Source of the DNA: Acidobacteriota bacterium
GTDB taxonomy: Bacteria; Acidobacteriota; Thermoanaerobaculia; Multivoradales; UBA5704
Length of the DNA stretch: 64,000 bases
Reading direction: 5' to 3'
Assembly: GCA_040349255.1 (NCBI GenBank)
Contig: JBEQUE010000144.1
Location: 15,524 to 79,523 of the forward strand
Part shown: piece after piece, positions 197 to 26,534 of the stretch
Numbering within the stretch: position 1 is the first letter of the stretch
How the letters are laid out: each line of letters starts with the position of its first letter
Position numbers and translations under genes: made by a program
Notes under the pieces: generated by a model
Databases searched by the model: none
What the model saw: only the letters and a program-made list of their open reading frames with translations
What the model was told of the DNA's origin: nothing

Positions 197-2280
<2,084 letters not shown>

Positions 2281-2299
<19 letters not shown>

Positions 2300-4674: not shown

Positions 4675-4691
4675 GGCGGCGGTCTCGCCTC

Positions 4692-6524: not shown

Positions 6525-6904
6525 CGGGCTCCTTTGATGCCACCATCCGCCTGTGGGATTTTGCGACCCGCCGGGAGTTGCTTCGACTGGAGGGGCACGC
6601 TGACAGAATCCTGAGCCTGGCGGTGACTCCGGACGGTCGCCACATCGCATCGAGCTCGGACGACAATACAGTGCGTGTTTGGCGTCTCGATACAGGGGAG
6701 TGCCTGGCTGTTTTCTTCGCAGAGGGAATAAGCGCTGCTTGCGCCATCTCGTTGGACGCCCAGTGCGTCTATGCTGGCGAACTGTCGGGGAAACTGCACT
6801 TCCTGAAACGGAAACCCTCCGTCATTCCTCTGAAAGCAAGTCCCCCCACAACACATCCGCAACCCGGCGGTTCGCTTCCATCAGATCGACGCCCTTCTCC
6901 TTGA
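6461..6904 (+). CDS. Continuation of the WD40 repeat protein in another frame (2-3 more WD repeats). Together with 4692-6524 it is either a frameshifted pseudogene or a sequencing indel.
   Basis: In this frame the WD pattern continues upstream to ~6392 (LEDEGNAWPTILDLTTGRVVGELRGHEDPV...IRLWDF...VRVWRLDTGE). It overlaps the convergent gene 6822-9968 by ~80 nt. Confidence 0.5.
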   Translation: MRGHEDPVETALFLPGDNRILTGSFDATIRLWDFATRRELLRLEGHADRILSLAVTPDGRHIASSSDDNTVRVWRLDTGECLAVFFAEGISAACAISLDAQCVYAGELSGKLHFLKRKPSVIPLKASPPTTHPQPGGSLPSDRRPSP

Positions 6905-9900: not shown

Positions 9901-9968
9901 CAGAGCTCTTGGAAGCGGTATCCATCGATAGTCTGCCAATCGACAGAAATCGGCCTAGTTAGTGTCAT
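6822..9968 (-). CDS. Multidomain defence protein: N-terminal Mrr-like PD-(D/E)xK restriction-endonuclease domain, CHAT protease domain, NACHT-type STAND NTPase, helical C-terminus
   Basis: 1048-aa ORF. REase motif GPDGGVDAIL...AAQFKYK at N-terminus. CHAT: EPWIPWELV, LLHFVGHGG ... LVFLNACWIG. NTPase: Walker A GDPGIGKTAI, Walker B LLFLVDALDEAD. The first ~250 codons (9215-9968) are markedly AT-richer. Confidence 0.85.
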   Translation of the reverse strand: MTLTRPISVDWQTIDGYRFQELCMDLLAVEGFGVQDQGVGPDGGVDAILLQTIMLPDATPSRLRWAAQFKYKQSADATVKPGELGNIVNILARFKVEGFFLITNGRVTHKAYEELRGATSVSHPPYLLSVWTRREIEGRIYKRHEVARRYFPSFTLYGQPTTKVEVTLDLQFAQFSEVERSRLQYALAKFLDIELSDVNIRKVLEGSTKVIIDLPRDSAHALQGAFAKSGIDLNKYGFRHVILKIRQSDVSEGEKALPASVQGAGLDTRGGTRSLPSSSAAPVDLELRVTIGFRDGRTQLHYILHSPVGIDGFSYRGVDGPSFQGRVEEYRSSILDKVRKLGERIDTDDSLLLRGEIRRKLEALGQDLYRELFSGEMQLLYRKIRRSVTTLTIISDEPWIPWELVKPYDAEDPDDVIDDDFLCIQFELTRWLAGNRSPAAEIQVRRLACFTTSSELTRAEEEQGLVTDLARDHSGIEDATVPVASAEEIETILGKGGLDLLHFVGHGGFNPDQPNESALPLEDESFFRAGDLTGALATEIGRNRPLVFLNACWIGQQAWSLTGLGGWADRWVRVCGCGAFLGPAWPVRDSRAFEFARSFYGALAQGETFGRAARIARLALREADADDPAWLTYVIYAHANGRIALGDAPGVREPAEKRAPPEIQKHILDFTPLIRRKTEGYVGRQWLFDALDDFVQKSNSGYIQVLGDPGIGKTAIVARLAQLRRYPLHFNVRAEGITKPSQFLPNLCAQLIRDFDLGYSALPPEASRDPRFLKELLGGISTKLLASGTKLLFLVDALDEADSGAVSKGANTLYLPSDLPPGVFAVVTSRRGQFKLQFTCEGHTIDLQRERENNFADVRLFTQNYALRPGIGAYITAQGLDEATFVDELVKRSEGNFMYLHYVLPEIEKGAYKTRDLTTLPTGLQSYYEDQWERMKELDTQGWFEYKLPVLVGLTVAREPISTGLISDFSGIQDRARVQMALDEWSQFLQPISVEDGDDGPELRYRLYHDSFHDFIKGKDQVKEKGVDLMEANRRVADVLWGDLLSEE
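9131..9162. repeat. ~28-bp direct repeat (GGAGCTTGGCAAGGAG...CTCC), copy 1, inside the REase-CHAT-NACHT gene just downstream (in gene sense) of the low-GC module
   Basis: Near-identical to 10039-10070 by direct reading. Confidence 0.6.
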
Positions 9969-10489: not shown

Positions 10490-10588
10490 AGCGCGTACCT
10501 CCCGGGTTTTCCATCTGTCCGCGTCGATTATCTCATTGATACGCCCGCCTGTCAGTCGAACACGGAGAACGAGACGCGGCCCGATTGA
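10181..10588 (+). pseudogene. Truncated, frameshifted duplicate of the lipoprotein gene 5' end (paralog of 11980-13251)
   Basis: Identical signal/lipobox (MRQPIPTL.LLALPLLAACATSS). A 14-residue stretch differs through a +1/-1 indel pair. The copy diverges after ...GQPL into the boundary motif and terminates. Confidence 0.6.
10504..10550. repeat. ~46-bp boundary motif copy 2 (GGGTTTTCCATCTGTCCGCGTCGATTATCTCATTGATACGCCCGCCT)
   Basis: See 10073-10118. It lies at the junction between the truncated lipoprotein copy and the 3' end of the DUF4157 gene. Confidence 0.5.
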
Positions 10589-11883
10589 CGGATCTGCGCC
10601 GCACGCCGCAACACCTTGGGATCGTGGCGCAGCCGTTCATAGACCCAGGGCTCCTGGTCCCGGAGCCTCCCCTCGCGCGCCCGGCGCTCGAGCTGGATCA
10701 GGAACTCGCCCATGGACTGATAGTAATTTTCATCGTACATCTCGCCCTTCTCGTCCCAGGTGAGCTCCTCTCCGAGAAGCGATCTCTTGAGGAGCGCGGC
10801 GGCGCGGCGGTTGTACGGGTAGGTATCGAACCCCTGCAGCTCGGCGCGCTCCTCCTTCGTGATCGTTCCCAGGATCCGTTTCGCGGAAAGAGCGGCGGCG
10901 CGCGGATTGTCCGGATAACCGTTGTAGCCCTGCAGCTCGGCCTCTTCCTGCCGGGACAGCGGCCCGGCGGCCTGCTTCGCGCGCAGCGCGGCGGCGCGCG
11001 GGTTCTCGCGCGTCCCATCCGGAGACCAGAGGCCGGCGTCGAAGCTGCGGTCCCGCGCCACGAGCCGCGAGAAATGGCCGCGAAGCTCCTCCTGCTCCGC
11101 CGGCGTGATCGTCCCCGCGTCCTGTTTCGCGTAGAGCATGGCGGCGCGCGGGTTGTCGGGGAAGCTCGCGATGCCGCGGAGCTCCGACAGCTCCGGCTTC
11201 GTGATCGTGCCGAGGATCCTCTTCTTCTGAAGCGCGGCGGCGCGCGGGTTGTTCGGATACGCGTTGCGCGCCTGCCGCTCCGCGACCTCTGGCGATGGTG
11301 GCGACGGCCTCTCCTCCACGGCGGGCGCCGGAGCGCCCGGCACCGGATCGCGGGCGATGACCGCAGGATGGAGCGACCCGGCGCCGGACCGCAGGCCCTG
11401 CGCCTCGGCCGGAGACGCGGCGCGAGCCATCCGATGCGCCTGCCGCTCCTGGGCGGAGTCCGGGGAGCCGAGCTGGAGCGGCCCCTCCGGCATGGGCGAC
11501 CCGGACCGCTGCATGACGTGGGACAGCTCGTGGTACAGGCGGTGGCGGCCGGTCTCGGTGTCCGGGGCGTAGCCGCCGCTTCCGAAAACGATGTGAGGAC
11601 CGAGAGTGTAGGCGTTGGCGTGCAGCGCGCGGGCCGACTCCGCCGCGCTCTCGCCGGTGTGGATCCGCACGTTGCTGAAGTCGAATCCGAGCCGCTGCTC
11701 GGCCGTGTCGCGGATCGAAGCGTCCAGCGGTTGACCCGGATGACGCAAAGCCCCCTCCGCGGTGGACGAAAGATCCTCGCCGGAAGCCGTGTCATTCCCC
11801 CGCTGGGAAACGCGCCGGCCGGACGAGGACGGAGAACGCATTCCGGTCGAAAACCCGCGCCGTTCGTGGTCGAACCTGTTCAT
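10552..11883 (-). CDS. DUF4157-type zincin-like metallopeptidase-domain protein with C-terminal tandem ~33-aa repeats
   Basis: N-terminal GQPLDASIRDTAEQRLGFDFSNVRIHTGESAAESARALHANAYTLGPHIVFG...HELSHVMQ (HExxH). Six to seven repeats of the consensus PDNPRAAAL.AKRILGTITKEE.AEL.G. Probable ATG at 11883 with a GGGAGG SD; the track ORF extends to a GTG at 11907. Confidence 0.8.
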   Translation of the reverse strand: MNRFDHERRGFSTGMRSPSSSGRRVSQRGNDTASGEDLSSTAEGALRHPGQPLDASIRDTAEQRLGFDFSNVRIHTGESAAESARALHANAYTLGPHIVFGSGGYAPDTETGRHRLYHELSHVMQRSGSPMPEGPLQLGSPDSAQERQAHRMARAASPAEAQGLRSGAGSLHPAVIARDPVPGAPAPAVEERPSPPSPEVAERQARNAYPNNPRAAALQKKRILGTITKPELSELRGIASFPDNPRAAMLYAKQDAGTITPAEQEELRGHFSRLVARDRSFDAGLWSPDGTRENPRAAALRAKQAAGPLSRQEEAELQGYNGYPDNPRAAALSAKRILGTITKEERAELQGFDTYPYNRRAAALLKRSLLGEELTWDEKGEMYDENYYQSMGEFLIQLERRAREGRLRDQEPWVYERLRHDPKVLRRAAQIRQSGRVSFSVFD

Positions 11884-11916
11884 GCTTGCTCTCCAGCCTC
11901 CCAACACCCCACATCT

Positions 11917-14287: not shown

Positions 14288-14851
14288 TTAGAGGAAGATC
14301 TCGCCGAGAGGGATCTCCAGGCCGGGCAGGAGCGGGCTGGTCAGAATGTCGCCATCCGCCGCGGTCAGCTCCGCGCCCCCCTGGAGGCATTCCCCCATCC
14401 TGCGGAAGATCCGGGCCGCGTTCCGCGTCGGATCGACCATCCAGTACTCCTGGACGCCCAGGATCTCATAGCGCTCCAATTTGAGACCCTCGTCCCGTTT
14501 CCGAGTCGACGGCGAGAGCACCTCGATGACGAGGTCCGGCGCTCCCTGGACGTTCATCTCGGTAAGAATCCTCGCTCTCGCCTGGGAGACGAACAGGAGA
14601 TCCGGCTGGACGACGTCATGCTTGCCGAGCAGAACGTCGGCGGGAGCCACAAAGAGACGGCCCAGTCGATGACGGCGGACGAACGGCGCGATCCAGGAAG
14701 TCAGCTCGACGACGATGCTCTGATGCCACAGGTTCGGAGCCGCCGTCACGAAGTGCTCCCCGTCGAGGATCTCGTGACGGTACCCATCCTCCGGGAACAG
14801 GAGGTAGTCCTCGTAGGTGAGCTTGCGACGGACTGGATCTCGAAGGGCCAT
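14288..14851 (-). CDS. Uma2-family (DUF820) PD-(D/E)xK endonuclease-like protein
   Basis: MALRDPVRRKLTYEDYLLFPEDGYRHEILDGE...PDLVIEVLSPST.R.DEGLKLERY. The start is taken at an internal ATG; the track ORF extends upstream. Confidence 0.7.
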   Translation of the reverse strand: MALRDPVRRKLTYEDYLLFPEDGYRHEILDGEHFVTAAPNLWHQSIVVELTSWIAPFVRRHRLGRLFVAPADVLLGKHDVVQPDLLFVSQARARILTEMNVQGAPDLVIEVLSPSTRKRDEGLKLERYEILGVQEYWMVDPTRNAARIFRRMGECLQGGAELTAADGDILTSPLLPGLEIPLGEIFL

Positions 14852-15021
14852 GGCGACTCCCGTTTGCAGAGCCAGGAAGAGTTTAGCACGGGACACAATC
14901 CTCGGGTCGGAAGAAGTTCCGCCGGAGGATATCTCAGGACTCGCCGTCGTGGAACTCGCGACGAGGCTCGACTGCAATCGAGTCCGCGCTCCTCGAATCC
15001 TCGGACACCTTCTCCCGGAAT

Positions 15022-17424
15022 TCACGCTTTCCGGCGGCAGATAATCTTGTCTCCACTCGTTCCCACGTGATCAAAATACTTGGTTATGATCTCATGGCAA
15101 TGTCGACAACTGGGCCTTATGTCCTCGTGAAGTTCTAGGATGAGGGTATCCACTCTAGGAAGCCAGGAGGCGGAGGTCTCGAGGACCTCGACCTCAGAGC
15201 CTTCGATGTCGAGCTTCAGTATGTCGATGAAAGAGATGCCATACTCCTCCATAAGCCCATCGACAGTGACGGCTGGAACGGTTTGCATAACACTCCTACC
15301 ATCTAGATCACCTTCTACGGTCTGGAATCCCCATGCTCCACTTCCACCATCGATAACCTGGACGCAGGCTTTCTTGCACCAGAGCGCCCCTCTCACTGGG
15401 AATATATTTGGGAAAGGCATCGAATTTCGAACCAGGAGTTGAAAGTTGTGTTCCTCGGGTTCGATCGCGATGATTCGGGCATCGGGATATCGCAGGGCAA
15501 AGTCAACCGATGAAGCACCTATGTTGGCTCCCCCGTCAACAATCACTTTTGGAGGATGTCCGACCTCAAGGATATGAGGCTTCTCGCGGAAGATCTCGCG
15601 ATACACATCGAGATCCGTGGTCTCTGGTCGTATGTGCAGAATGTGACTACCTTCCAGGGCAACCCTTATTGTTGCCTCGTCGAGTTCGGTCCCATTGACA
15701 CTCTCTCCAGTCTCGCCAAACGAAAAATAAGAAGTAGCGGCCAGCCCAAGAAGGCGCTGCCCGACAGGCAGCAAAGAATGGATGTCTTCCCACTTATTTT
15801 CCCATAACGAACCTTGAAAGCCGAGTTCTTTCCAGAGGCGCTCGGCAAAATTGGGCATTATTGGCGCAGAGAGGATGGCCAAGAGCTTCGCCGCGAGCAG
15901 TTCTAGCGCGACGGCTGTCCGCCGCCTTTCATTTTGCGCGATAACTCGAAGCCAGCTTTCCTCGGATTTCGCGAAGCGCCTCGCATCGCGAACGAGCCAA
16001 CCGAGGACGCTTGCAGCGCACTGAGGCGAGAACGTCCTCGCCTCGTAGGCTTTGCTCGCCTGGGCAGTTAGCATGGTTAGTCGTTCTGCGAATCGCAAGT
16101 GCTCTTCCGCCCAACTACCAGCCCCAGGCACCCGTTCCTCGAACTCTCTAGCAGCCCGAACCGCCAATTCCCTGAGCCAAGCCTGCCATTCACGGATCAG
16201 TTCCCGGTCCACGTCCGCGGCGAGCTCAGCCAAACTGAAGTTGGTCCTCTCCACCTCGGGATATGTTGTCGCCATGTGAAAGCGTAGGGAGTCTGCGGGC
16301 ACCCTGCTCAGCAGATGCTGTCCCCAGATTGCATGCTGCCGGCTGGTTGAGAACTTGGAATGATCAAGAAGACGGAACTCGTTCATGAGCAGCGCCGAAG
16401 GAAGACGGATTTGCGAGTCAAAAGCCATCAGCAACGCGGGCACCAGAACTGCGTAGTAAAAAGCATTGTCGAATCCGAAACATTGAATAGCAAGGGAATC
16501 CCCATTCTTCCAGAATTGCTCCCAGCGGCCATCGAGATGCTGGGCATAGGTGAGATAGCGCGCGGCTTCGTCGCACCACGTATAGACTGTCTGGCCCTCG
16601 AATCCTGGAATTGCAATCGGCACCCCCCAGTTATCGTAATGAGAAACAGCAAAATTCCAGAAACCAACCTGTAGAGCCTGCTCGCAGAAAGATCTCAGAT
16701 TAGAGCTCATCGCCACCTTGCTCCAATATTCCTGCAGCCTGCCGCTATACTGGTCAAGCGGGAAGTAGAGGCGCTTCATAGCCCTGAAGGACGGAGGAGC
16801 GCCGCACTGGGCGCAGACCGGATCCAGAAGATCTACACAGCGGTTGGGCATACCGCAACTCTCACATCCGCTTCCCGTGGTACGGCTTCCACAATAGGGG
16901 CAGTGTCCAGAGATATAGTTCTCATAAAGCTGGCGACGACACGGTTCACAATAGGTAGTCGGGTCCACGCGGGAAATGAGCAATCCACGGGCATACAGGT
17001 TACCTAGAAAATCTTGTACGGTCGGTACGTAGAAGAGCGATGAATTCGGCCGAATAAACTGGTCGACGTCAATCCGCGCCCCCCTGAGCGTACTCGCTAT
17101 ACTTTCCGCCATTTGGTCTGCAACCTGCTGAGGGGAGACGCCAGCCTCCATTGCATGGATCTTGACGTCACTCTGATTGTCATCTGTACCAGTGAAAAAG
17201 TGAACCTCTGCGCCACGAAGCCGGAGGTAGCGCGACTGAATGTCTCCTGCAAGGTAGGGCCCGGAGAGATGGCCCACATGCAGATCGCCATTCGGGGTTG
17301 GGGGCGCTGCCATGACAAGTACGCGAAGAGAAGCATAGCGCAACGTATCCCGGCAGTCGCTCGCCAGGCCCTCGACCGCTCCATAACTAGAAATTATCTG
17401 CTTCTTCTCCCTGGGTTCTTCCAT
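15022..17424 (-). CDS. Methionyl-tRNA-synthetase-like class I aaRS catalytic domain (HIGH/KMSKS-like, Zn knuckles) fused to a C-terminal FkbM-family methyltransferase domain
   Basis: PPTPNGDLHVGHLSGPYLAGDIQSRYLRLRGAEVHFFTGTDDNQ (MetRS-like HIGH region). CEPC...CPYC...CESCG...CAQCG knuckles. LLDHSKFSTSRQ (KMSKS-like). C-terminus VVDGGANIGASSVDFALRYPDARIIAIEPEEHNFQLL (FkbM MT motif). ATG at 17424 with GGAGAG SD. Low-GC gene. Confidence 0.8.
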   Translation of the reverse strand: MEEPREKKQIISSYGAVEGLASDCRDTLRYASLRVLVMAAPPTPNGDLHVGHLSGPYLAGDIQSRYLRLRGAEVHFFTGTDDNQSDVKIHAMEAGVSPQQVADQMAESIASTLRGARIDVDQFIRPNSSLFYVPTVQDFLGNLYARGLLISRVDPTTYCEPCRRQLYENYISGHCPYCGSRTTGSGCESCGMPNRCVDLLDPVCAQCGAPPSFRAMKRLYFPLDQYSGRLQEYWSKVAMSSNLRSFCEQALQVGFWNFAVSHYDNWGVPIAIPGFEGQTVYTWCDEAARYLTYAQHLDGRWEQFWKNGDSLAIQCFGFDNAFYYAVLVPALLMAFDSQIRLPSALLMNEFRLLDHSKFSTSRQHAIWGQHLLSRVPADSLRFHMATTYPEVERTNFSLAELAADVDRELIREWQAWLRELAVRAAREFEERVPGAGSWAEEHLRFAERLTMLTAQASKAYEARTFSPQCAASVLGWLVRDARRFAKSEESWLRVIAQNERRRTAVALELLAAKLLAILSAPIMPNFAERLWKELGFQGSLWENKWEDIHSLLPVGQRLLGLAATSYFSFGETGESVNGTELDEATIRVALEGSHILHIRPETTDLDVYREIFREKPHILEVGHPPKVIVDGGANIGASSVDFALRYPDARIIAIEPEEHNFQLLVRNSMPFPNIFPVRGALWCKKACVQVIDGGSGAWGFQTVEGDLDGRSVMQTVPAVTVDGLMEEYGISFIDILKLDIEGSEVEVLETSASWLPRVDTLILELHEDIRPSCRHCHEIITKYFDHVGTSGDKIICRRKA

Positions 17425-17454
17425 ACACACTCTCCATGGCTGACTTAAATTAGC
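17425..17454. promoter_or_regulatory. 30-bp divergent intergenic spacer between the aaRS-like/FkbM gene and the CHAT-SIR2-NACHT gene. Promoters must overlap the coding regions.
   Basis: ATG 17424 (minus) and ATG 17455 (plus). Confidence 0.3.
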
Positions 17455-20400
17455 ATGCCTGACTATAACATACCGAAGACCTCGCCGAGAAGAGTCCTCG
17501 TTCTGTCGACAAACCCTGAGGATACCGAAAGGCTAGCACTTGAACGGGAAACCCGTCAAATTGAGCGTGCATTAGCGCATCGCGAAGGAAGTTTCACGGT
17601 GCGACACGCTATGGCTGCTCACCTTGAAGATCTCGAGGACAGCCTATTCGATTTTAAGCCGCAGTACGTTCATTTCTGCGGCCATGGCTTAAAAGGAGGC
17701 CGAGGTCTTGCCTTCCAGGATGACTCGGGAAGGACGAGTCCCGTTACCACGCGGCAGCTTAAGGAGTTGTTCTCTATCTTCAAAACGAACATCAGCTGCG
17801 TATTTCTCAATTGCTGCTTTTCGCGCCCCCAGGCAGAAGTGATTTCCGCTCATGTCCCCTACGTGATTGGAACAAGTGAGGCGTTTGACGATGAGTTGGC
17901 CGTTGTCTTCGCTTCAAAGTTCTACAAGGCGATTGGTCGTGGAAAAACGGTCCCATTTGCGTTCAAGTTCGCCCGCGCTGTTACCGCCGACAATTTGGAT
18001 TCCCTGATTCCGGTCCTAGTCCGAGGGCGGCGCAAAAATAAAACAAACCCTGGAGATAGCGTCGGCTCTTCTGGCACCAGCCAGTGGAAGGCAGGAAATT
18101 TAGGGCAACCCAAGGAGTTCCGCTCGTTCGATTTAGAAGCAAAGGAAGAACAGGCTTCGTTACACCTCAATACCTCGCAAAAAGAACAGGATCAGGATGC
18201 TCGGCGCGCTTCCCTGAGCCGCCTCTGGAATCGATTAGAACAAAAGCGCGAAGCCGTCATTTTTCTGGGTTCTGCTGCCTGCGCGGAGGGCTTCAAGGAG
18301 GGCAAGCCCTACCCCAGCTTGGATGCCATCGCCAAGCGAATTCTCGATGATGAAGGTCGAAGCACTGGCAATATGACCGACGTTCGCAAGGAGCTGAGAA
18401 ATACATTGCGGATGTGGACTGAAGGGGAGGGAGATCTTTCCGATTTTCTCCGAAAATATATTTCAGGGCAGCCCGGCGCTGCCCATCACTATCTTGCAGC
18501 CTTGGCTCTAGGCCTTTTCCCGGAGTTCAATCTCCTTCTGTTTGTAACGGCCGGATTCGATGACTTGATGGAGGAAGCATTCGTCAGTCTGCTAAGAGGT
18601 GAAACCCGACCCAAGATAAGGCATTACAGCATTGGGCATCAAGAAGAAACAGTTCCTAGAATTTTCGAGGAAGTCTCCGGTCAAGTGCGCAAGGGAGTGC
18701 CTGTTATACTCAAACTATTTGGCGATCTGGACGCAGAGAGTCCCCTGCTCTACCCAAAGACCAAAATTCGTCAGAAGCTTGGGAGCAGTATTCAAGGCTG
18801 GTTCAGCCGTCCCGTGCTCTTCATCGATTGCGGGCCCGAGGATAAAGCCTTTGAAGATTTGTTCTTTAAGACAGAAAAGCGTGGCCCCTTGTTTGTTATT
18901 GGTAAGAACCTTGCACAATATCGAAACGATCCTACTATTCATCATGTCGCCATATCGCTCATGGAATTCGGCCTAGAGTTCCTCGATATGGTGAGATCTA
19001 AAAATCAGGACCTTCTTAAGCGGGTAGAAGATCTCCTGCATAATGTAGATCCTCTCGCGCTCTATCCTGATTGTGAATCTATCATGGCACGCGCCGCTAT
19101 CGCCTCTCGCGCTTCGTTACTACGGGTGGAAGAGCGACTGCCGCGTAGCCGTTCCAATGAGGAAGGCCACGCCTTTGTGCCCATCGCTCGAATTGACACG
19201 CAACCTGATTTCGCGGCCTTCTTGCGGGACGGTAGGCCTCTCCTTGCATTAATCGGTGATTCCGGTTCCGGTAAGTCTACTCTCTTCTACCAAGTCCACC
19301 AAGCCGCGGGTGCTTTCATTTCGATCTTTTATGACATCCATCAACTTCAGGCCACGCGCACGCTTGCTGGTAGGCTTGCCCACGACTTCCTCTGTGACGA
19401 ACGCAATTTCGTCGACCTTGTTAGAGTACTCGACAAGGCATTGAAATTTGAGCAGCGAAAGCTTGTCATTTTTATTGATGGACTCAACGAAAGCCTTGAT
19501 CTGAAGCCTTCCACCTTGCGCTTTGAAATCGAGGATCTTGGCGCGAAACTGCCAGGAACAATCAAGATTGCCTATTCGTGCCGCAGAGTCTATTGGGACA
19601 ATTTCATCCGCAATACATCGCCGCTTTCCAAAGAACTATACTTTAATTCAAAAGAAATAGTTCTAGAGCACTTTTCTCCAAGAGAGGCGGAAAGCGCCTT
19701 CAAGTCATACCAGGAACTTTACGGATTCCTCGGTAACTATGCTTCATTGAGCTCCGAATTCAAGTTGAGAATTAAGGACCCGCTGATGTTGCGTATGCTC
19801 GCAGAGGGTTACGCGGGGAAGAAGCTTCCTGATTTCGCGCCTGCAGTGCTGATCTTCGATACTTACCATAAACGTTTCCGGCAGCGCTTCAAAGGCACTG
19901 TTGTACCGGCTTTCCTCGATGCGCTAGTGGCCGCGAAGGTAAATGAGACCGAGGCGGAACTCGCCTCCGATCAGTTCATCACTGAAGATGTGCGAACGCA
20001 CCCGAAACTCAGTCTTCTGATTCAACAGCAGATGTTGAATGCGCATCGGGGTGGGGACCCACTCCTGCTCCTCGAAGATGAAGGGATACTGACAGCTATC
20101 GATGACGATAGCACATCCTATCGATTCGCCTACGACCGGTTTTTTGAATATCTACTCGGAAAATCACTTTCAAAACTTCTGACTACCGGTTCTAGAGAGA
20201 GGTTCCGAGAGCGTCTTGAGAAGCAGATACGTAGATTAAGCCCCTTTCATTTTTCCTTCCTGCAAGCGCTGAAGTCGGAGGTCATTCGTCTCAACATTCT
20301 CGAGCCAAGCGGGCCCTGCTCCTTTTACGACCCTGAACTTGTGAGAGGACTTCTTGAGAACGAGGATGCGGGGATCGTTGCGTTCACGAAGGACCTGTTA

Positions 20401-21909
20401 AGAGAGTTGATGTTCGAGGGGGGGCGGGACCTCACGTCAGTGATAGCGCAGGTCTTTCAGGATGAGACGGCTAATCAGCTCTTGATGCTGGACATAGCCC
20501 CTGATTCGCCGCGCACGCTCCCCTTGGTTGTGAGAGGGTTGATGCAGGGTGCGAGAGAGATCGCTCGTCGCTGCTGCCATATCCTTGTCAACTTCTTATC
20601 CGAGCCGGAATCCCGGCGCCTCATCGAGGATGAACTCTTTCTCGAGCTTCGCAGGCCGCTTCAGGTCGCGACAATAGGTGGAATGATTTACTATTCAGCA
20701 GCCTTGGCCGGAGAAGCCGATCGTAGGGGTGCTGACCCTCTACCGATAATCCTAGATTTCTGGCGCCGAGCATGGGGAGTCGCAGAAAGGGACGAAAGGG
20801 ATGTCGAGGCGCTGGTCGGCGGCCTAGTGAGAATAGTACACACTGAGGCTGGCCGATTCTTCGGTGATGACAGCAGGAACGCTATGGACTACATATGGAC
20901 AGGCATGCCTCGTGAGATCAAGGATGTTTCCCTTCAGATGGTTCCATTTATTGTCGATTCTGACCGAAGGCTCCCCCCTGACATTCAGGAGATTCTCCTC
21001 TTCTTCGGATCGACCATACGCGATTGGTCAACTCGTCGCGATCCTGCTGCCTATGTAGAGAAGGACTATAAAATAGAGTTCACGATGGCACAGTGGATCC
21101 TGGTGCAGAGGGCGAGGCACCAATACAGCGACGTGAAGGAGACTCTTGAAAGCTTCGTCGCCACAGGTTATTCACGAAGCATTGAGGTGGCGCTTAGCAA
21201 TATGGAGTCCTGTTGCCTCCATATGCTCCTGAATGACAAAGCGCTTCTTAATGACGCTTATCAGACCATGCTTAAGTGGATGCCGATTTACCAGAGTGAT
21301 GAGCAAGGATTTTACGGGCACTTGGCCAAGGAGGACCCCTTCTCGCGCAACGAGTGCCCGATAGATATGGTTGGTCGAATTTCTCTCCTGGATGAGTTTT
21401 CTCCCAAGGAGGGGCGAATCCCGTTTCTTGAGCCTTGGTTCACTAGCCTGGACAGGAGAGACCGCCTGTACGCCCTAATCTGCGCCAGGAAATTGTGGCG
21501 TCATCAACCCGTAAAGATGCTCCAAACCCTCGAAGTCGTTTGTAGCTCGGATGACGAAACCGTCGCCTCTTGGCTGGACGTCATACTCAAGGAAATCTAC
21601 ATGGTTCTCCCGCGTCTCGTGGAGGAGTTCTTTCGGCGTACCGGCATGGAGCCGGCCCGAGCCCAAAGAATCAAGACTCGGTCGGACGTGGTGGACCCTA
21701 GCGCTGTTGTCCACCCTGGAGAGCCCCTCTACAAAGCGCTCTTCCTCGGCCCCCGAGAGCGCCGCAAGAAATTAGCTGAATGGTACCTTCATCTTCTTCA
21801 GTCCGACAGCTTAGAGGATTACTGCGACGCCCTTGCACGATGGTTCATTTCGAAGATCCACAACATGGATACGGGGAACCATGGGTTGAGCGCCGACCTT
21901 GATCCTTGA
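17455..21909 (+). CDS. Giant CHAT-like caspase domain, SIR2-like domain, NACHT-type STAND NTPase and long helical-repeat C-terminus protein (1484 aa)
   Basis: N-terminus RVLVLSTNPEDTERL...YVHFCGHG...CVFLNCCFS (His/Cys dyad). SIR2_2-like motifs AVIFLGSAACAEG, LLFVTAGFDDLMEEAF, ILKLFGDLD. Walker A LLALIGDSGSGKSTLF, Walker B KLVIFIDGLNESLD. Low-GC gene. Confidence 0.85.
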   Translation: MPDYNIPKTSPRRVLVLSTNPEDTERLALERETRQIERALAHREGSFTVRHAMAAHLEDLEDSLFDFKPQYVHFCGHGLKGGRGLAFQDDSGRTSPVTTRQLKELFSIFKTNISCVFLNCCFSRPQAEVISAHVPYVIGTSEAFDDELAVVFASKFYKAIGRGKTVPFAFKFARAVTADNLDSLIPVLVRGRRKNKTNPGDSVGSSGTSQWKAGNLGQPKEFRSFDLEAKEEQASLHLNTSQKEQDQDARRASLSRLWNRLEQKREAVIFLGSAACAEGFKEGKPYPSLDAIAKRILDDEGRSTGNMTDVRKELRNTLRMWTEGEGDLSDFLRKYISGQPGAAHHYLAALALGLFPEFNLLLFVTAGFDDLMEEAFVSLLRGETRPKIRHYSIGHQEETVPRIFEEVSGQVRKGVPVILKLFGDLDAESPLLYPKTKIRQKLGSSIQGWFSRPVLFIDCGPEDKAFEDLFFKTEKRGPLFVIGKNLAQYRNDPTIHHVAISLMEFGLEFLDMVRSKNQDLLKRVEDLLHNVDPLALYPDCESIMARAAIASRASLLRVEERLPRSRSNEEGHAFVPIARIDTQPDFAAFLRDGRPLLALIGDSGSGKSTLFYQVHQAAGAFISIFYDIHQLQATRTLAGRLAHDFLCDERNFVDLVRVLDKALKFEQRKLVIFIDGLNESLDLKPSTLRFEIEDLGAKLPGTIKIAYSCRRVYWDNFIRNTSPLSKELYFNSKEIVLEHFSPREAESAFKSYQELYGFLGNYASLSSEFKLRIKDPLMLRMLAEGYAGKKLPDFAPAVLIFDTYHKRFRQRFKGTVVPAFLDALVAAKVNETEAELASDQFITEDVRTHPKLSLLIQQQMLNAHRGGDPLLLLEDEGILTAIDDDSTSYRFAYDRFFEYLLGKSLSKLLTTGSRERFRERLEKQIRRLSPFHFSFLQALKSEVIRLNILEPSGPCSFYDPELVRGLLENEDAGIVAFTKDLLRELMFEGGRDLTSVIAQVFQDETANQLLMLDIAPDSPRTLPLVVRGLMQGAREIARRCCHILVNFLSEPESRRLIEDELFLELRRPLQVATIGGMIYYSAALAGEADRRGADPLPIILDFWRRAWGVAERDERDVEALVGGLVRIVHTEAGRFFGDDSRNAMDYIWTGMPREIKDVSLQMVPFIVDSDRRLPPDIQEILLFFGSTIRDWSTRRDPAAYVEKDYKIEFTMAQWILVQRARHQYSDVKETLESFVATGYSRSIEVALSNMESCCLHMLLNDKALLNDAYQTMLKWMPIYQSDEQGFYGHLAKEDPFSRNECPIDMVGRISLLDEFSPKEGRIPFLEPWFTSLDRRDRLYALICARKLWRHQPVKMLQTLEVVCSSDDETVASWLDVILKEIYMVLPRLVEEFFRRTGMEPARAQRIKTRSDVVDPSAVVHPGEPLYKALFLGPRERRKKLAEWYLHLLQSDSLEDYCDALARWFISKIHNMDTGNHGLSADLDP

Positions 21910-22144
21910 GTATCCGCCATCTTTCAATAGCCGAGGCATTGCTACTCCCGCCGAGGTGATAAACCAAGCTGACCGCTTCACTGCATGTTGCCCTGACTCC
22001 AGCTGCCCGAATGGCCAGATTCCACAGATCATCATAGCTAGCATTAGCCATAAGGTCGTAGAATCCATACAGTTCAATCGGTCGGTCGTGCGTGACAACC
22101 ACGAAGGAAATCAGGAACTTCGATCTCATCGGGTTGGCCTCTCG

Positions 22145-22867
22145 TCAACTGTGTAATGCGCGAGGGGCTTTGACTAGATGTTTGTGGTCGTTTTCGCCAG
22201 GGCCAAAGTATTCCCGGTTGTTGCAGCGGCGGCATATCTCTGAAGCCTCCTGCCTTTTGCCTTCTTGGAGCAGGTTACGGAGGTGGACGAATCGCGGGGA
22301 AAACCAAATCTCCTCAAGAGTCTGAACCGATATATTTCCCATGACATGGCTTCGCTCGGCGTCGTCACAGCAGAGCAGGACATCCCCGCCAACTGTAATT
22401 ATCAACATGTCAGTCGGAGCATAACATGGCAAGAACAGTGGCTCCTCCGTTGTACCCAGGAGCCCACCTCGATTCACAAGAACAAGATCCGAGGGGAACT
22501 GGATCGTCTGATAGGGCCTTTCCGGCATCGGCTCATAATCATGGCGTGTCACAATGAAGTGATCTATGCCGGCCTCCCTTAGGGAGGTGTAACGCTCATC
22601 AAGGAGAAGGTCTCCGTTGGTGAATAAAACCTGAAATGCATTTGGAAGACGGGCGGCCGCCTTCCTTACCAAAGTTTCCAGATCGCGACGCAAGAGCGGC
22701 TCATTGAACAAGTGATACGATAGGTTCCCTTGGAAATTGACCCGCTCCAACTCGGAAACAATACGATCGAACAACGATTCGCTCATAAAGAGATCGGTCT
22801 TGGGCGCGGGTAATACCGACACGGGGCAATAGCTGCACCGGCGATTGCACCGAGCATTGACCTCCAT
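22145..22867 (-). CDS. Small radical SAM enzyme with SPASM/twitch-like C-terminal Cys cluster (BtrN-like size)
   Basis: CNRRCSYCP (CxxxCxxC) near the N-terminus. C-terminal LLCCDD...CRRCNN. The start is taken at an internal Met (MEVNARCNRRC), which leaves a 5-nt gap after the DegT stop; the track ORF extends to 22966. Confidence 0.7.
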   Translation of the reverse strand: MEVNARCNRRCSYCPVSVLPAPKTDLFMSESLFDRIVSELERVNFQGNLSYHLFNEPLLRRDLETLVRKAAARLPNAFQVLFTNGDLLLDERYTSLREAGIDHFIVTRHDYEPMPERPYQTIQFPSDLVLVNRGGLLGTTEEPLFLPCYAPTDMLIITVGGDVLLCCDDAERSHVMGNISVQTLEEIWFSPRFVHLRNLLQEGKRQEASEICRRCNNREYFGPGENDHKHLVKAPRALHS

Positions 22868-22872
22868 TTCGA

Positions 22873-24225
22873 CTACGCTGAACCAACTTCCCTGGGGCTC
22901 GACAGGTTGTCCTCTAAACACGAGTTTGCCTCCGACGGCACGCTGGCGTTTTCCAATTGGTGCCAATAGTGCATGACCTTTTCTACAGCCCTGACGATAT
23001 CTTCAATCTCCGCGAGGCCCCCAAGAAGTGCATTGTGGGGGATGGCGATATAGCGACGGCGGGCCGCAACTGCCGTTGGTAGGTGGAAACGGGAAGGTTC
23101 GAAAGGGCTCGGCCCAGTCGCCTGATGGCGCCGCGGAGATCTCATGGGATTGAACAGTTGATTCTGGTTCAATGGATCATAGAGAGGCTGAATCGTCAAG
23201 CCTAACTCCGCCGTCAATGCGGCGGCAACGGTCTCTATGGGCACGCAGCCGAACCGCTCAAGTTGAAACTCCAGGCAGTAGCGGTAGAAGGTAGGCCGTC
23301 CCGCCGCCTCGGGTTTGTGGAGGGGGCGGACTCCCGATATCTCGCGGAGCCGCGAAGTCAGATGTGACGCGTTCTCTGTCCGAATGGCGTTCTCCTCGTC
23401 TAGAAATCGTAGACGATCGTGGAGAATGGCCGCATGGAACTCTGAAAGGCAATGGTTGTGTCCCTGGACATCTCCTGCGGGTTCAAGCTCCAGGCCTCTC
23501 GGTATTCGGCGCGCTACGTAGCGTCGGCCATCGGCCCGGAACTGCTGCAAGAGGCTGTACAGATTGGCATCCTTGGTAATCACGGCTCCGCCTTCGCCGC
23601 TGGCCAGGACTTTGCTCTGTTGCATGCTGAACACACCTGCAGCGCCGAAGGTTCCTACCTTTCTACCCTGCCAAGAAGCACCATGAGCATGCGAACAATC
23701 CTCGATCAATGGGATTCCGGTCGTGCTCGACAACTCTTGGAATGACGCGAGGTCGGCAACTGTGCAGTAGAGATGGACCAGCATAATAGCCGCCGTCGCT
23801 CTGGTAATTGCGTTCCGTGCCGCGTTAACGGACATACAGAGCGTATCAGGATCAACGTCGACCAGTATGGGGATACCTCCCAAGCGCGCTACAGAGGAGC
23901 CGCAGGCAACCCAAGTGAGGCCAGGAACGAGAACCTCCCGTCCCGGACCGATACCGAGGGCTTCGAGCGCGATTGTAAGGGCTGACGAACCGTTGGCTGT
24001 CGGAACACAGTAGGGCACTTCGTGGAAGGCGGCGAACGACTCTGCGAATTGTCGTTCGAAGGGAAGATCCTCCAAGCATGGCCCGCTGATCGTCCAGCGC
24101 TGCGAGCGAAGAACTTTCAAGAGAGCTTCTTCCGTGGATTGCTCCGCGCGCGGCCAGTTAGGCCAGGAAAGGCTTCTGACAGGAATTCCGCCGAGGATCG
24201 CCAAGAGAGACGAGGAAGCAGTCAT
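22873..24225 (-). CDS. DegT/DnrJ/EryC1/StrS-family PLP-dependent aminotransferase
   Basis: FSMQQSKVLASGEGGAVIT (PLP-Lys motif). The family also contains scyllo-inosose aminotransferases. ATGA overlap with the upstream gene. Confidence 0.85.
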   Translation of the reverse strand: MTASSSLLAILGGIPVRSLSWPNWPRAEQSTEEALLKVLRSQRWTISGPCLEDLPFERQFAESFAAFHEVPYCVPTANGSSALTIALEALGIGPGREVLVPGLTWVACGSSVARLGGIPILVDVDPDTLCMSVNAARNAITRATAAIMLVHLYCTVADLASFQELSSTTGIPLIEDCSHAHGASWQGRKVGTFGAAGVFSMQQSKVLASGEGGAVITKDANLYSLLQQFRADGRRYVARRIPRGLELEPAGDVQGHNHCLSEFHAAILHDRLRFLDEENAIRTENASHLTSRLREISGVRPLHKPEAAGRPTFYRYCLEFQLERFGCVPIETVAAALTAELGLTIQPLYDPLNQNQLFNPMRSPRRHQATGPSPFEPSRFHLPTAVAARRRYIAIPHNALLGGLAEIEDIVRAVEKVMHYWHQLENASVPSEANSCLEDNLSSPREVGSA

Positions 24226-25379
24226 CGTTGCAGTGTCAAGAATTCAATAAGTTTTCGGAACTGCTCTGGCACGGAGTGCTCACAGGAGGCTCCTTCGCCG
24301 ACAATAGGATCCTTGAAAAAATATGAAGCGGCATCCAATGAGCCGTGACAACCCGCTTCCGCAGCGTAGGCGACCACTCGTACAAGATCAATTATTGCAG
24401 GCGCTGCCAGAATTGAGTCCTGTCCTAGCCAATTGATCTTCAATTGCATTGGGACACCCAGGAAGCCGCGAAAATCAATGTTGTCCCACGCTTCCTTGGA
24501 GTCACCGCGCGGGGGATAATAATGGATATGGACTTGATGACCCGTCCCGTGCGCGCCTCCGGGCACATAGCCGAGGATGGAGCTCAGGCATTTGCTCTTC
24601 GAGATGATCTTCGTCTCACCGGCTCCAGGCTTGGACAAGGAGAGACCATCGTCATTACCGAGCAGGTTTGTACTGAACCACCCATCGATCCGAAGGTTCT
24701 TGTCCCTGAATGCCGGCGCGAGAGTAGTCTTGATGAAGGTCTGACCGGTTTTGCCATCGCGGCCAGCATAGATTAAACCCTTCTCTTCGGCGAGTTCCCG
24801 CAGGGGAGTAATTTCGGCCGGGTTCGGAGTGAAGTTAATAAAATGGGCTCGCGCCTCAATAGCGAGACGGAAGTAGATTTGGCTAACCGAATACGAGGCA
24901 CCCAACTCCAATTCATCGAGATTCCTCCAATCGATCCGCTCGTCAGCGTCCTGCTTGGGCACGGGCTCCGTCGGGCAAAGATTGACCAGTATCACGTGTC
25001 GCCAATCTTCTCTCCGCCGCTTCCTGTTCAGGTGGGCCGCTTCCCGTCGGATCCAATCGCCTATTGATTCTCTTTGGAGCTCAATTCCCTTTCTTGGCTT
25101 GATCCTTTGCAGGCGTTGCTTCGCCTTCGAGAGTACCTCCGGGGGGCATATGCGGTGTCGCTTACAGGAAGCGTACAAAGTGTCCTGATTCATGTCCCAG
25201 CCATGGATGGACATGGAGGAGAATGGCAAAAGCCGGCAACCGGATGCACGCACCAGAGGCGACTCCGTCGCCACGCCGAAACCGGCAATTTCTTCAGGTG
25301 GCATCGAAAGCCCAGCTGCCAACGTGCTACCGACCGCCCCTGCCAGTCCAGCAACCATGATAAGAGCTGGTTCTGCCAT
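24222..25379 (-). CDS. myo-Inositol-1-phosphate synthase (Ino1/MIPS) family protein
   Basis: IMVAGLAGAVGSTL (Rossmann), FINFTPNP, GRDGKTGQT, STNLLGNDDG (matches the MIPS SYNHLGNNDG motif). First gene of the MIPS-DegT-rSAM operon. Confidence 0.75.
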   Translation of the reverse strand: MAEPALIMVAGLAGAVGSTLAAGLSMPPEEIAGFGVATESPLVRASGCRLLPFSSMSIHGWDMNQDTLYASCKRHRICPPEVLSKAKQRLQRIKPRKGIELQRESIGDWIRREAAHLNRKRRREDWRHVILVNLCPTEPVPKQDADERIDWRNLDELELGASYSVSQIYFRLAIEARAHFINFTPNPAEITPLRELAEEKGLIYAGRDGKTGQTFIKTTLAPAFRDKNLRIDGWFSTNLLGNDDGLSLSKPGAGETKIISKSKCLSSILGYVPGGAHGTGHQVHIHYYPPRGDSKEAWDNIDFRGFLGVPMQLKINWLGQDSILAAPAIIDLVRVVAYAAEAGCHGSLDAASYFFKDPIVGEGASCEHSVPEQFRKLIEFLTLQR

Positions 25380-25650
25380 TCAGTTCTCCATACAGATTTC
25401 GGAAGAAGCAGATAATTTCTAGTTATCCGCTATCTCGAAGGTCCACTAGTAGAATATTCCTGCTGGGCGTTCAGTGATTATAGTGCCATTGTAAGTGTAT
25501 TCTGGCGATAGTCAACACATAATCCTTGTTCCGAACAAATATAAATCTTCGCGCTATAGCAACCGGCTGATCCCGTCGCATCGCATTATTTGTACCTTCC
25601 CTAGTAACCGCGTGTTCCTCAAGCGTGCCTGCGAACTTAGTTGTGACTGT
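25380..25650 (-). promoter_or_regulatory. AT-rich upstream/promoter region of the MIPS-DegT-rSAM operon and boundary of the low-GC island
   Basis: AT-rich non-coding stretch immediately 5' of the ATG at 25379. GC rises sharply after ~25650. Confidence 0.3.
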
Positions 25651-26018
25651 TGCTGATATGCGCACCTTGGACTATCTGCCGTGACGATCCGCTGGATGTG
25701 TCCGCGTTCCAGTTGAACGGTTCCGGGACTCCTGTTTCGTCGTATACGCACCGCCAACACCGGAACGTCTTCGATCATCTCGGCCTGGAAGACCGACCGC
25801 CGGCAACAGAACCGGGGAGGTCACCTGCACAAAGAGGTCCCCGGCGCACGCCCAGCGCCGGACCGCCCCCTCCCCGGCAGGCGGGCCTCTTCGGAACGGC
25901 GGCGGCCTTGGACCCGGCAGCCGCCGCTCCTCCTGGTTGTCAATGAACCTCGCTTCGCTCGGGGGCCGGCGAGGACGCCGGCGGTCCCAGCGAGCCCCCG
26001 CCCTCCCTCTTTCCTTCG

Positions 26019-26468
26019 CTAACCGGCCGCCGCAGCGACCTGCCGCCTCCGCCTGGCCTGGATGCCGAAGTCCTCCAGCTTGTCTGCGGCCGGTCCGTAG
26101 TGATGTTTCAGCGAGAACCGCAGGACCGTCGCCAGCCTCTGGCAGTCGGCCAACAGCGTCGCCAACTGCTTCGTCGCTTCCTGCTTGAGCGACGACAGGG
26201 CGGCCTGGGCCTGGATCAGCTCCTCCATATGGTTCAGCAGTTCCTCGAACTGGACCCGCTGGGCCTCCAGGTACGACAGCTCCGGGCGGTTCTCCTGCAT
26301 TCCGGTCAACAGGCGATGCCACTCCCTCAACTGCGCCGACCGGGTCCGGTCCGACGAGGGCTCCGTCCGGGCGGGAACGGCCGGGAGCTCCTCGGCCGGG
26401 CGCTCTCCGACGCCGTCCAACAGCTCCTGCACGTCTCGCAGGAGGTCCGTATACGTGCTTTCGGGCAT
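26019..26468 (-). CDS. Hypothetical protein, tandem paralog A
   Basis: 149 aa. Shares QRLATVLRFSLKHHYGP..KLEDFGIQ with the next gene. Confidence 0.6.
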   Translation of the reverse strand: MPESTYTDLLRDVQELLDGVGERPAEELPAVPARTEPSSDRTRSAQLREWHRLLTGMQENRPELSYLEAQRVQFEELLNHMEELIQAQAALSSLKQEATKQLATLLADCQRLATVLRFSLKHHYGPAADKLEDFGIQARRRRQVAAAAG

Positions 26469-26534
26469 GATCTCTCTCCTTGAAAAAAGGTGAGGGGGCT
26501 CGAACGGCCCGCCCCCTCGCCAAGTCAGAGGACG

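Follow-up and report, generated by a model that had tools for sequence, protein, structure and literature searches.

An NLR-like STAND gene with a CHAT domain and a degenerate SIR2 domain shares an inverted-repeat-bounded segment with a predicted aminocyclitol cassette

The window analyzed here is a stretch of 64,000 nucleotides (nt) from an Acidobacteriota metagenome-assembled genome (MAG; GenBank assembly GCA_040349255.1, contig JBEQUE010000144.1), and the gene of interest is the open reading frame (ORF) at 17455-21909, whose product of 1,484 amino acids (aa) is identical to an NCBI protein annotated as "CHAT domain-containing protein." The protein is an NLR-like (NACHT-type STAND) sensor. 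Its gene had been treated as standing alone in a preliminary description of the sequence; it was instead found to form one half of a conserved module bounded by inverted repeats, the other half being a convergent cassette of predicted aminocyclitol biosynthesis genes, and the segment between the repeats lies in opposite orientations in related loci. The reading that we favor, and to which we give an even chance of being correct, is a mobile, invertible STAND-cassette module with toggled expression, in which the NLR-like sensor would act through its CHAT protease and the SIR2 domain would serve as a scaffold. A fuller proposal is offered tentatively, with something short of an even chance: that the module is an undescribed mobile, recombinase-driven two-state switch of 6 to 11 kb providing clonal bet-hedging between two exclusive conflict strategies, and that its SIR2 fold has turned into a death-domain-like homotypic adaptor recruiting a caspase-like protease. 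In the full-text literature available as an incomplete collection, no link between STAND or NLR proteins and aminocyclitols and no whole-gene invertons of such a kind were described, and as far as can be told the conserved invertible module of STAND and aminocyclitol genes is new.

Inverted sites, linked genes and inversion of the segment

The two repeats enclose approximately 8 kb of the window, containing the STAND gene and the convergent cassette. The segment and its surroundings comprise the following features.

15022-17343, minus strand: fusion of a MetRS-like enzyme with an FkbM methyltransferase, located beyond the left repeat though still within the same island of low GC
17383-17407, plus strand: left inverted repeat, a perfect 25 nt with the core (C/G)ATAA-CTAGAAA-TTATC, its end 48 nt upstream of the STAND start codon
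17455-21909, plus strand: STAND gene, 1,484 aa from an ATG start, with CHAT, degenerate SIR2, and NACHT-type nucleotide-binding oligomerization (NOD) modules and an ARM/HEAT-like solenoid
22145-22966, minus strand: BtrN-like radical SAM/SPASM dehydrogenase (BtrN structure 4m7t in PDB, E = 2.7e-45; Pfam)
22873-24225, minus strand: DegT-family homolog of L-glutamine:(2-deoxy-)scyllo-inosose aminotransferase (PDB 5w70, E = 1e-109; BtrR 2c7t, E = 3e-92)
24222-25379, minus strand: cyclitol-phosphate synthase of the myo-inositol-1-phosphate synthase (MIPS) family, first gene of the cassette (PDB 7nwr, 1u1i, E = 1e-46; Pfam)
25402-25426, minus strand: right inverted repeat, 25 nt, perfectly complementary to the left arm, with 23 nt between its inner end and the MIPS start codon downstream
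25488-25515, minus strand: sigma-70-like site TTGACT-16-TACAAT (10 of 12 consensus positions), outside the right repeat and reading into the cassette

The core motif of the window occurs twice in its 64 kb, where no occurrence is expected by chance. Across loci, a core of the form GATAA-N7-TTAT(C/G/T) was found as one inverted pair around the STAND gene and its partner genes in all 12 loci that have both ends on the contig, and no core sites were found in the loci lacking a STAND. The 7-bp spacer is the same at both sites of each locus (12/12) and takes nine different forms across loci; such identity within and variation between loci is the pattern expected of tyrosine recombinase crossover regions.

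Opposite orientations were seen between relatives. The DNA of L009 and L010, recovered from different samples, is 100% identical, with the recombinase-side flank joined to opposite ends of a 5.9-kb segment (9964-15898 in L009), so that both junction types were recovered. Similarly, L002 and L005, whose STAND proteins are 79% identical, have flanks of 82 to 85% identity that have changed places and direction relative to a colinear segment of about 9 kb, with the breakpoints falling at the core sites. Contigs also break at these sites: both ends of L006 and L011 are at cores, as are the start of L008 and the end of L016. This is the picture expected where the two orientations are present together in the populations sampled. 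Xer-like tyrosine recombinases, all scoring below the XerC and XerD equivalog cutoffs, are encoded outside the segment in L002, L004, L005, L009/10/18, L014, L016, and L019.

The STAND family is rare and almost wholly metagenomic, with eight relatives identified by a word-indexed search and approximately 40 by an exhaustive search (at 50% clustering, among 1.8 billion representatives), and none found in IMG/VR, INPHARED phages, or PLSDB plasmids. A BtrN-like gene was located downstream of the STAND gene, on the opposite strand, in 12 of 12 distinct loci with STAND identity of at least 35% (the window, L001, L002/3, L004, L005/11, L006, L007, L012/13, L014, L016, L019, and L041). The DegT and MIPS genes follow it wherever the contig is long enough; that of L007 ends after the BtrN-like gene and a GT2 gene. 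Pairwise identities of the three enzymes parallel the STAND identities and give the same clades, in hosts with GC contents ranging from 0.36 to 0.67. In the reverse test, 21 of the 22 BtrN-like loci in species-representative genomes had no STAND, MIPS, or repeat sites, as was likewise the case for two long metagenome contigs with BtrN identity of at most 58%. These STAND-less loci are larger, aminoglycoside-type clusters, one of which carries FmrO 16S rRNA methyltransferases. The two previously unseen loci with BtrN identity of at least 64% (L019 and L041) both harbor the full module. In the window, a low-GC island at approximately 15,000-25,500 consists of exactly five genes, namely, the MetRS-FkbM gene, the STAND gene (about 52% GC, in a genome of about 67 to 70%), and the three convergent enzyme genes.

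At each end, the distance from core to start codon is 4 to 125 nt in 10 of 12 tabulated loci (the exceptions being L041, with longer distances, and L010, whose right flank is truncated), so that internal promoters would have hardly any space, if any, above all on the cassette side. The site at 25488-25515 is the only sigma-70-like site near either end of the segment in the window. No promoter-like site was found in the left flank, and the stretch from 21700 to 22300, where the convergent genes meet, had neither a terminator-like nor a promoter-like site; an Rfam scan of 14500-26500 (E ≤ 0.1) returned no match, and no tRNA genes were found in the window. Inward sigma-70-like sites matching at least 10 of 12 positions, for which the background rate is 2.3% per random sequence window, lie near the core on exactly one flank in our window, L001, L013, L014, and L019. 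They face the STAND gene in L001, L013 (a perfect TTGACA-17-TATAAT), and L014 and face the cassette in our window and L019. Read-through from the recombinase gene was also considered as the promoter and is unsupported; in L019, L005, and L014 the promoter-like site is on the flank opposite the recombinase.

Since each 5' end begins only tens of bases in from its site, and only one of the two sites has a promoter-like sequence beyond it, the orientation of the segment would select the half that is expressed. An Xer-like recombinase would flip the segment bounded by the inverted tyrosine recombinase core sites GATAA-N7-TTATC, and orientation would then decide whether the STAND gene or the cassette is transcribed, as in the G segment of phage Mu; the orientation seen in the window would be cassette ON and STAND OFF. 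The Mu G segment shares this layout, in which two gene sets converge between inverted sites and a single promoter lies outside, and the G and P1 C segments further resemble the STAND module in having an adjacent recombinase and occurring in both orientations. Mu and P1 inversions depend on serine invertases and swap tail fiber variants. Tyrosine recombinase invertons of bacteria mostly flip small promoters or hsdS fragments (PMC9881135, PMC7672463), whereas in the STAND module an Xer-like tyrosine recombinase would flip 6 to 11 kb that carry an immune-type sensor and, opposite it, a small-molecule pathway. Should the toggle prove real, a bacterial NLR-like gene would be expressed in only a subpopulation, alternating with a chemical pathway, and three fields that are usually studied apart would be linked: immunity of the NLR-like kind, inversion-based phase variation, and aminoglycoside-type biosynthesis. 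The combination of GATAA-N7-TTATC sites and an Xer-like recombinase also provides a searchable signature for further switches.

Several observations count against such a toggle. A search across the 64-kb window found no recombinase, and the genome is known in one orientation only; the switch may be locked in this genome, or the recombinase may be supplied in trans. The recombinase of L014 is several kilobases from the segment. Core-to-start distances are longer in L041 (151 and 462 nt). Support for the promoters consists of consensus matches in five loci, using a consensus that may not apply to Acidobacteriota, and any promoter elements inside the repeat itself would drive both ends whatever the orientation. 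Finally, the reason why a STAND gene and a cassette should alternate is unexplained.

The inversion data also bear on a different explanation, which we regard as unlikely, namely, that an ordinary Avs-like antiphage STAND travels with unrelated biosynthetic cargo, the repeats being mobile element ends or attachment sites that insert either way, with no regulatory coupling. The low GC content indicates that the module was horizontally acquired, it travels with a recombinase, the host region is an island of conflict systems (including an Mrr-CHAT-NACHT gene and a CHAT-SIR2 gene with an nSTAND1 gene, described below), and enzymes related to the BtrN-like protein occur in ordinary aminoglycoside-like clusters without a STAND, all of which would fit cargo. 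However, gene order and convergent orientation hold down to 35% STAND identity and over the full range of host GC, and neither partner of the aminocyclitol-linked subclade was found alone. Unlike a transposase gene, the recombinase gene lies outside the repeats, and loci that are identical save for orientation, together with contigs breaking at the sites, point to in situ flipping within populations. The short 5' leaders (4 to 60 nt), with little space for internal promoters, likewise argue against uncoupled cargo.

The STAND protein and its degenerate SIR2 domain

The succession of CHAT, SIR2-fold, NACHT, and helical repeat regions given in the preliminary description was borne out by profiles, AlphaFold models, and Foldseek, and the ORF and all of the motifs quoted for it are present. 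The domains are arranged as follows.

17479-17979, plus strand: short CHAT (caspase-like) protease domain, aa 9-175, catalytic His77 and Cys121
18202-19074, plus strand: SIR2-fold domain, aa 250-540, without the GAGxS loop, the catalytic Asn (Gly367), or the His (Phe422)
19150-20169, plus strand: NACHT-type NOD module, aa 566-905, Walker A GDSGSGKST and Walker B VIFIDGLNE
20170-21906, plus strand: all-helical, ARM/HEAT-like C-terminal solenoid, the presumed sensor, aa 906-1484 (AlphaFold2 and Foldseek)

Within the protein, HFCGHG is at positions 73-78, FLNCCFS at 117-123, FLGSAAC at 270-276, VTAGFDD at 364-370, LKLFGDL at 419-425, GDSGSGKST at 601-609, and VIFIDGLNES at 671-680.

The CHAT module (aa 9-175) scored 26.9 bits with Pfam CHAT PF12770, above the cutoff of 24, and matched the PADLOC chat model (E = 5.4e-10) and PDB 8tl0 (E = 6.6e-12). 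Its His77 and Cys121 align with positions 355 and 402 of the 8tl0 chain, which correspond to H375 and C422 at a constant offset of +20, the published catalytic dyad of SAVED-CHAT (bioRxiv 10.1101/2023.06.23.546230); the N-terminal module thus has the dyad for which it was tested, and the dyad is kept in 14 of 14 CHAT modules of the family. SAVED-CHAT of type III CRISPR is the closest solved relative, with the same short core and dyad and with activation by oligomerization, but its trigger is cA3 binding to its SAVED domain rather than a STAND, and its substrate PCaspase has no counterpart in the STAND loci. No gene for a gasdermin or other known CHAT substrate was found in any locus inspected.

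For the NOD, Walker A (601-609) and Walker B (671-679) match the patterns GxxxxGK[ST] and hhhhD[GA]hxE, and G601, K607, S608, D675, N678, and E679 are invariant in the close STAND family. The commonest NTPase profiles across the family (E ≤ 0.01) were NPHP3_N, in 21 of 23 members, and NACHT, in 18 of 23, while the window protein itself remained under the cutoffs for NPHP3_N (20.5 to 21.8 bits; cutoff, 24.8) and AAA_16 (23 bits; cutoff, 32.6). An AlphaFold2 model of aa 566-1484 (pLDDT, 87.6) matched NLRP7, STAND-TPR 6mfv, Avs4, EfAvs5, and Cdc6/Orc in its N-terminal part and CAND1, karyopherins, importin-alpha, and beta-catenin in the C-terminal 580 residues that form the solenoid. The models therefore contain the succession of nucleotide-binding, helical, and winged-helix domains followed by a repeat sensor that defines an NLR-like STAND, and the protein by itself represents a new architecture among known NLR-like STANDs. 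Membership in Avs2 was ruled out: the NCBIfam equivalog NF041813 gave 13.4 bits against a cutoff of 1,000, and PADLOC Avs2 models matched only part of the NOD (aa 595-918, E = 1e-6). The bNACHT and Avs2-type protease STANDs (bioRxiv 10.1101/2022.07.19.500537; 10.64898/2026.08.25.746987) are similar in having a NACHT-type NOD, an N-terminal effector, and a C-terminal repeat sensor, but the effector of the window protein is CHAT, not trypsin-like.

That the middle region is SIR2-like held for the fold but fell just short by profile. Pfam SIR2_2 gave 23.7 bits over aa 250-540, slightly below the cutoff of 24.5, whereas an AlphaFold model computed from the family alignment (pLDDT, 83; pTM, 0.84) retrieved exclusively SIR2 proteins among its top 45 Foldseek matches in PDB (E values of 2e-6 to 1e-3), including structures of SPARSA, SIR2/HerA, ThsA, EfAvs5, DSR2, and sirtuins. 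In this domain, GSAAC replaces the GAGxS NAD-binding loop, TAGFD (Gly367) replaces the TTN[YF]D motif with the catalytic Asn, and KLFG (Phe422) replaces the K[LF]HG motif with the catalytic His. The register was checked in profile-to-PDB alignments, in which TTNYD of PsSIR2 (8w9l) lies opposite T(T/A)GFD and KFHGD of KomC (8zsf) lies opposite KLFGD. An exhaustive profile search with the SIR2-like region identified 104 proteins at E < 1e-3 (40 of them at E < 1e-10), and alignment of all 104 to the profile gave the following distribution of motifs.

Distant SIR2_2 outgroups: glycine loop GAGAS, Asn motif TTN[YF]D, His motif KLHGDL
CHAT-less members (about 1,220 to 1,260 aa, domain N-terminal): loop kept, Asn kept, His replaced by Phe (in some by Trp, Leu, or Tyr)
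CHAT-bearing members, including the window protein: loop lost (GSAAC), Asn lost (Gly367), His lost (Phe422)

Across the STAND family as a whole, the His position is occupied by Phe, Tyr, Trp, Leu, or Ile. Active EfAvs5 has Asn, not His, at the second catalytic position, and its N141A substitution abolishes phage defense (PMC11897194). As EfAvs5 is active without a His there, loss of the His is the weaker argument and loss of the Asn and the glycine loop the stronger. Among CHAT-bearing members, the SIR2 domain shares 39 to 52% identity, similar to the CHAT domain, with 35 invariant columns; since the relic is still under purifying selection, it presumably has some noncatalytic role.

Judging from these residues, the SIR2 domain of the window protein is predicted to be unable to hydrolyze NAD+, and the NADase function proposed for it earlier did not survive comparison with outgroups that keep all three motifs or with L016, in which the domain has been deleted. 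The effector would be the CHAT protease rather than an NADase, since the SIR2 domain has lost its catalytic residues while the CHAT dyad is conserved. We propose that the domain is a catalytically dead relic that now acts as a scaffold or adaptor through homotypic contacts. If the protein works as Avs and bNACHT proteins do, a ligand bound at the solenoid and a nucleotide bound at the NOD would cause it to oligomerize, which would bring the CHAT domains together on the SIR2 scaffold and activate the protease by proximity. Two points tell against this account: with both the NACHT-type and the SIR2_2 Pfam models, the window protein itself scores under the curated cutoffs, and the CHAT-less relatives may still be enzymes, as the His is not strictly required in active SIR2 proteins.

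Were the protein instead an autonomous dual-effector STAND, with a CHAT protease and an active SIR2 NADase both firing upon activation and the neighboring genes irrelevant, the intact SIR2 fold, the purifying selection just described, and the missing His of active EfAvs5 would all be accommodated. We nevertheless consider this very improbable. Every CHAT-bearing member has other residues in place of the glycine loop, the Asn, and the His, the N141A substitution abolishes phage defense in EfAvs5, L016 dropped the SIR2 domain yet retains the CHAT domain, NOD, sensor, and cassette, and the neighborhood is conserved and codiverging, hence not irrelevant.

Three architectures were found within the one orthologous family: SIR2-NACHT-solenoid, CHAT-SIR2-NACHT-solenoid (the window), and CHAT-NACHT-solenoid. 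The last is that of L016, which aligns only to aa 7-173 and 541-1460 of the window protein, the SIR2 region being cleanly deleted. In L013 and L014, whose STANDs are of the SIR2-NACHT type, a separate gene encodes a paralogous SIR2-like domain together with the same short type of CHAT. The SIR2 domain of this stand-alone SIR2-CHAT protein is 47 to 53% identical to that of its own STAND, and both have GAGAS, TTNYDD, and KLFGDL. The simplest reading of these sequences is that the SIR2-like domain would mediate homotypic contact between sensor and protease. In the lineage of the window, the protease appears to have been fused on first, after which the remaining residues of the NAD site would have decayed, and all three evolutionary stages of the family survive in living relatives.

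These loci also settle which system is the split counterpart of the window protein. That role had been assigned to the genes at 197-2299 and 2281-4674, which do encode CHAT, SIR2_2, and NTPase domains as described, with the reported distinction between NACHT (DGLNE) and nSTAND1 (DQFEE) clades holding. However, the two CHAT-SIR2 modules are only remotely alike (22% identity over CHAT), and the true split counterpart is the SIR2-NACHT STAND with its SIR2-CHAT gene in L013 and L014. There, sensor and separate protease share a homologous noncatalytic domain, as in the adaptors of NLRs (animal CARD/PYD; bacterial CARD-like domains, PMC10312443); in other lineages of the family the protease is fused directly. 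Unlike those adaptors, the shared domain is an ex-enzyme SIR2 fold rather than a death fold, and the interaction is a proposed one. The SIR2 domain would thus offer a concrete example of an enzyme fold turned adaptor for a caspase-like protease, parallel to the CARD/PYD logic of inflammasomes.

By fold, the nearest known system is EfAvs5 (AVAST type 5; PDB 9jap and 9nc9; PMC11897194), which combines a SIR2-fold domain, a STAND NOD, and a helical sensor; its structures were matched by both halves of the window protein, and the CHAT-less relatives have the same domain order. The SIR2 domain of Avs5 is an active NADase dependent on N141, whereas the window protein has neither the Asn nor the His nor the loop and has a CHAT domain in addition. 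Sequence similarity between the two is negligible, and Avs5 has not been reported in an invertible segment or with a biosynthetic cassette.

Some members depart from the usual domain sizes. P0002 (L004 8001-13001) has an insertion of about 190 aa between the CHAT domain and the SIR2 relic (aa ~200-440), containing a Walker-B-like "CLIILEDIDSIL" stretch, and the CHAT-less members P0010 (2,058 aa) and P0025 (1,495 aa) are of unusual length.

Predicted chemistry of the cassette

The product of the cassette would be made in a few steps: the MIPS-family enzyme would form a cyclitol phosphate, from which the BtrN-like dehydrogenase and the aminotransferase would produce an aminocyclitol of the scyllo-inosamine or streptamine type, and the variable enzymes would tailor this afterwards. 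Homologs of BtrN and of the L-glutamine:2-deoxy-scyllo-inosose aminotransferase are shared with the butirosin 2-deoxystreptamine pathway (BtrC, BtrS/BtrR, BtrN). In contrast to that pathway, the carbocycle enzyme of the cassette is of the MIPS type and not a DHQS-like 2-deoxy-scyllo-inosose synthase, which implies that the product derives from inositol and is akin to scyllo-inosamine or streptamine; the cassette also has only three to six genes, lacks an exporter, and is linked to a STAND gene. PADLOC models gave no match to the DegT and MIPS genes. For the BtrN-like gene, the likely true start gives 240 aa (22145-22867), as does the NCBI gene model. Reduced MIPS/DegT/BtrN cassettes of this type may lead to unexplored aminocyclitols in Acidobacteriota and other uncultured phyla.

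Tailoring genes vary between loci and include a carbamoyltransferase or APH-type kinase, GT2, FemAB-like, and methyltransferase genes and sometimes a second BtrN paralog. In the window, the MetRS-FkbM fusion is probably a tailoring enzyme. Its ORF reaches 17430, overlapping the left repeat, with the TTG at 17343 as the likely start. The MetRS-like domain has an HVGH motif and an anticodon-binding domain, and a simple pattern search found no KMSKS-type motif; we take it to be a ligase reminiscent of MshC in mycothiol synthesis. In L041, a MetRS-like fragment of 355 aa, 57% identical to that of the window, adjoins the STAND gene.

Several further observations concern related enzymes. The CHAT-less clade carries two tandem BtrN-like radical SAM genes and an APH-family kinase gene (L013 8391-9980 and L014 14811-16320), which suggests two separate oxidation steps and hence a diaminocyclitol product. 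AP_endonuc_2 genes (IolE/IolI-like isomerase/epimerase fold) recur, at 6807-7709 in L001, at 4034-4978 in L008, and upstream of the STAND gene in L012/L013; in the CHAT-less clade they lie immediately beyond the invertible segment, in L042 and L043 they are part of the BtrN clusters that have no STAND, and they may belong to the cyclitol chemistry. Locus L042 (Acidobacteria MAG GCA_018269055.1, JAFDVI010000024.1) is a large aminoglycoside-like cluster with no STAND and no MIPS gene, harboring genes for two FmrO-type 16S rRNA methyltransferases, TGT, two DegT aminotransferases, and GFO/IDH/MocA dehydrogenases, as well as BtrN-like, FemAB-like, carbamoyltransferase, and sulfotransferase genes. 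In a distant STAND clade (29% identity; L009, L010, and L018), proteins of the SIR2-NACHT type are paired with a methyltransferase-GT2 fusion and a GINT1_N/GH43-like gene.

The partnership of sensor and cassette raises the question of whether one acts on the product of the other. Action of the SIR2 domain on that product, for example, by ADP-ribosylating an aminocyclitol, was rejected as a general explanation because the linkage persists with the SIR2 motifs destroyed or the domain deleted (L016). Alternatively, the solenoid could bind the aminocyclitol or a precursor, making the STAND not a phage sensor but a pathway checkpoint or addiction device that triggers proteolysis upon the appearance or disappearance of the metabolite. 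Sugar and antibiotic pathways do have STAND regulators, namely, MalT, which binds maltotriose, and AfsR. AfsR has been cited as a STAND regulator (PMC12803255). The strict reciprocal linkage and codivergence with the enzymes, the diversification of tailoring genes by locus (carbamoyltransferase or APH kinase, GT2, FemAB-like, MetRS-FkbM), and the conservation of the solenoid within the clade (48 to 58% identity among close members) would be in keeping with metabolite sensing. We still judge it to be decidedly unlikely. If inversion makes expression mutually exclusive, sensor and ligand would rarely coexist in one cell; the large ARM/HEAT sensors of solved Avs proteins bind proteins; the STAND protein has no DNA-binding domain; and in the distant clade (L009) the STAND is paired with unrelated glycan enzymes. 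The favored reading remains that of a toggled module in which the sensor would serve defense or conflict.

Other genes in the window

The host region is rich in conflict-type genes (197-6524, 6822-9968, eCIS_core, and Uma2), which fits a putative role in defense. The product of the gene at 197-2299 matched CHAT (1e-30) and SIR2_2 (3e-17), and that of 2281-4674 matched nSTAND1 (6.5e-30), with DQFEE at aa 154. The CHAT domain of 197-2299 and the window STAND were related by BLASTP at E = 6e-4, and in a comparison with the SIR2 profile of the STAND family only the TTN motif of 197-2299 was matched; a close relationship of its CHAT-SIR2 module to that of the STAND is thus unsupported, the two being only remotely similar. 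The SIR2_2 domain of this protein (aa 498-566) keeps the catalytic Asn (ITTNPD) and has Phe in place of His (YYLFGRL versus IKFHGTL of solved SIR2 NADases). Approximately 10 of about 60 outgroup SIR2_2 proteins have Tyr, Leu, or Asn at the His position, so that SIR2_2 domains without this His may be a wider phenomenon.

The nSTAND1 ORF (2281-4674) and an ORF for a WD40 beta-propeller (4329-6524, plus strand) overlap by about 350 nt in different frames and could be either a single frameshifted gene or two genes. An ORF of 1,375 aa starting at 547 in the nSTAND1 frame overlaps the CHAT-SIR2 gene and is probably an artefact of high GC content. A third CHAT-bearing STAND of the window is encoded at 6822-9968 (minus strand; 1,048 aa) and combines an Mrr_cat nuclease with CHAT and NACHT domains. 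Between the two STAND regions, in DNA of host GC content, lie genes for an eCIS_core protein (10552-11907, minus strand) and for a putative endonuclease of the Uma2 family (PADLOC PDC-S03; 14288-15025, minus strand).

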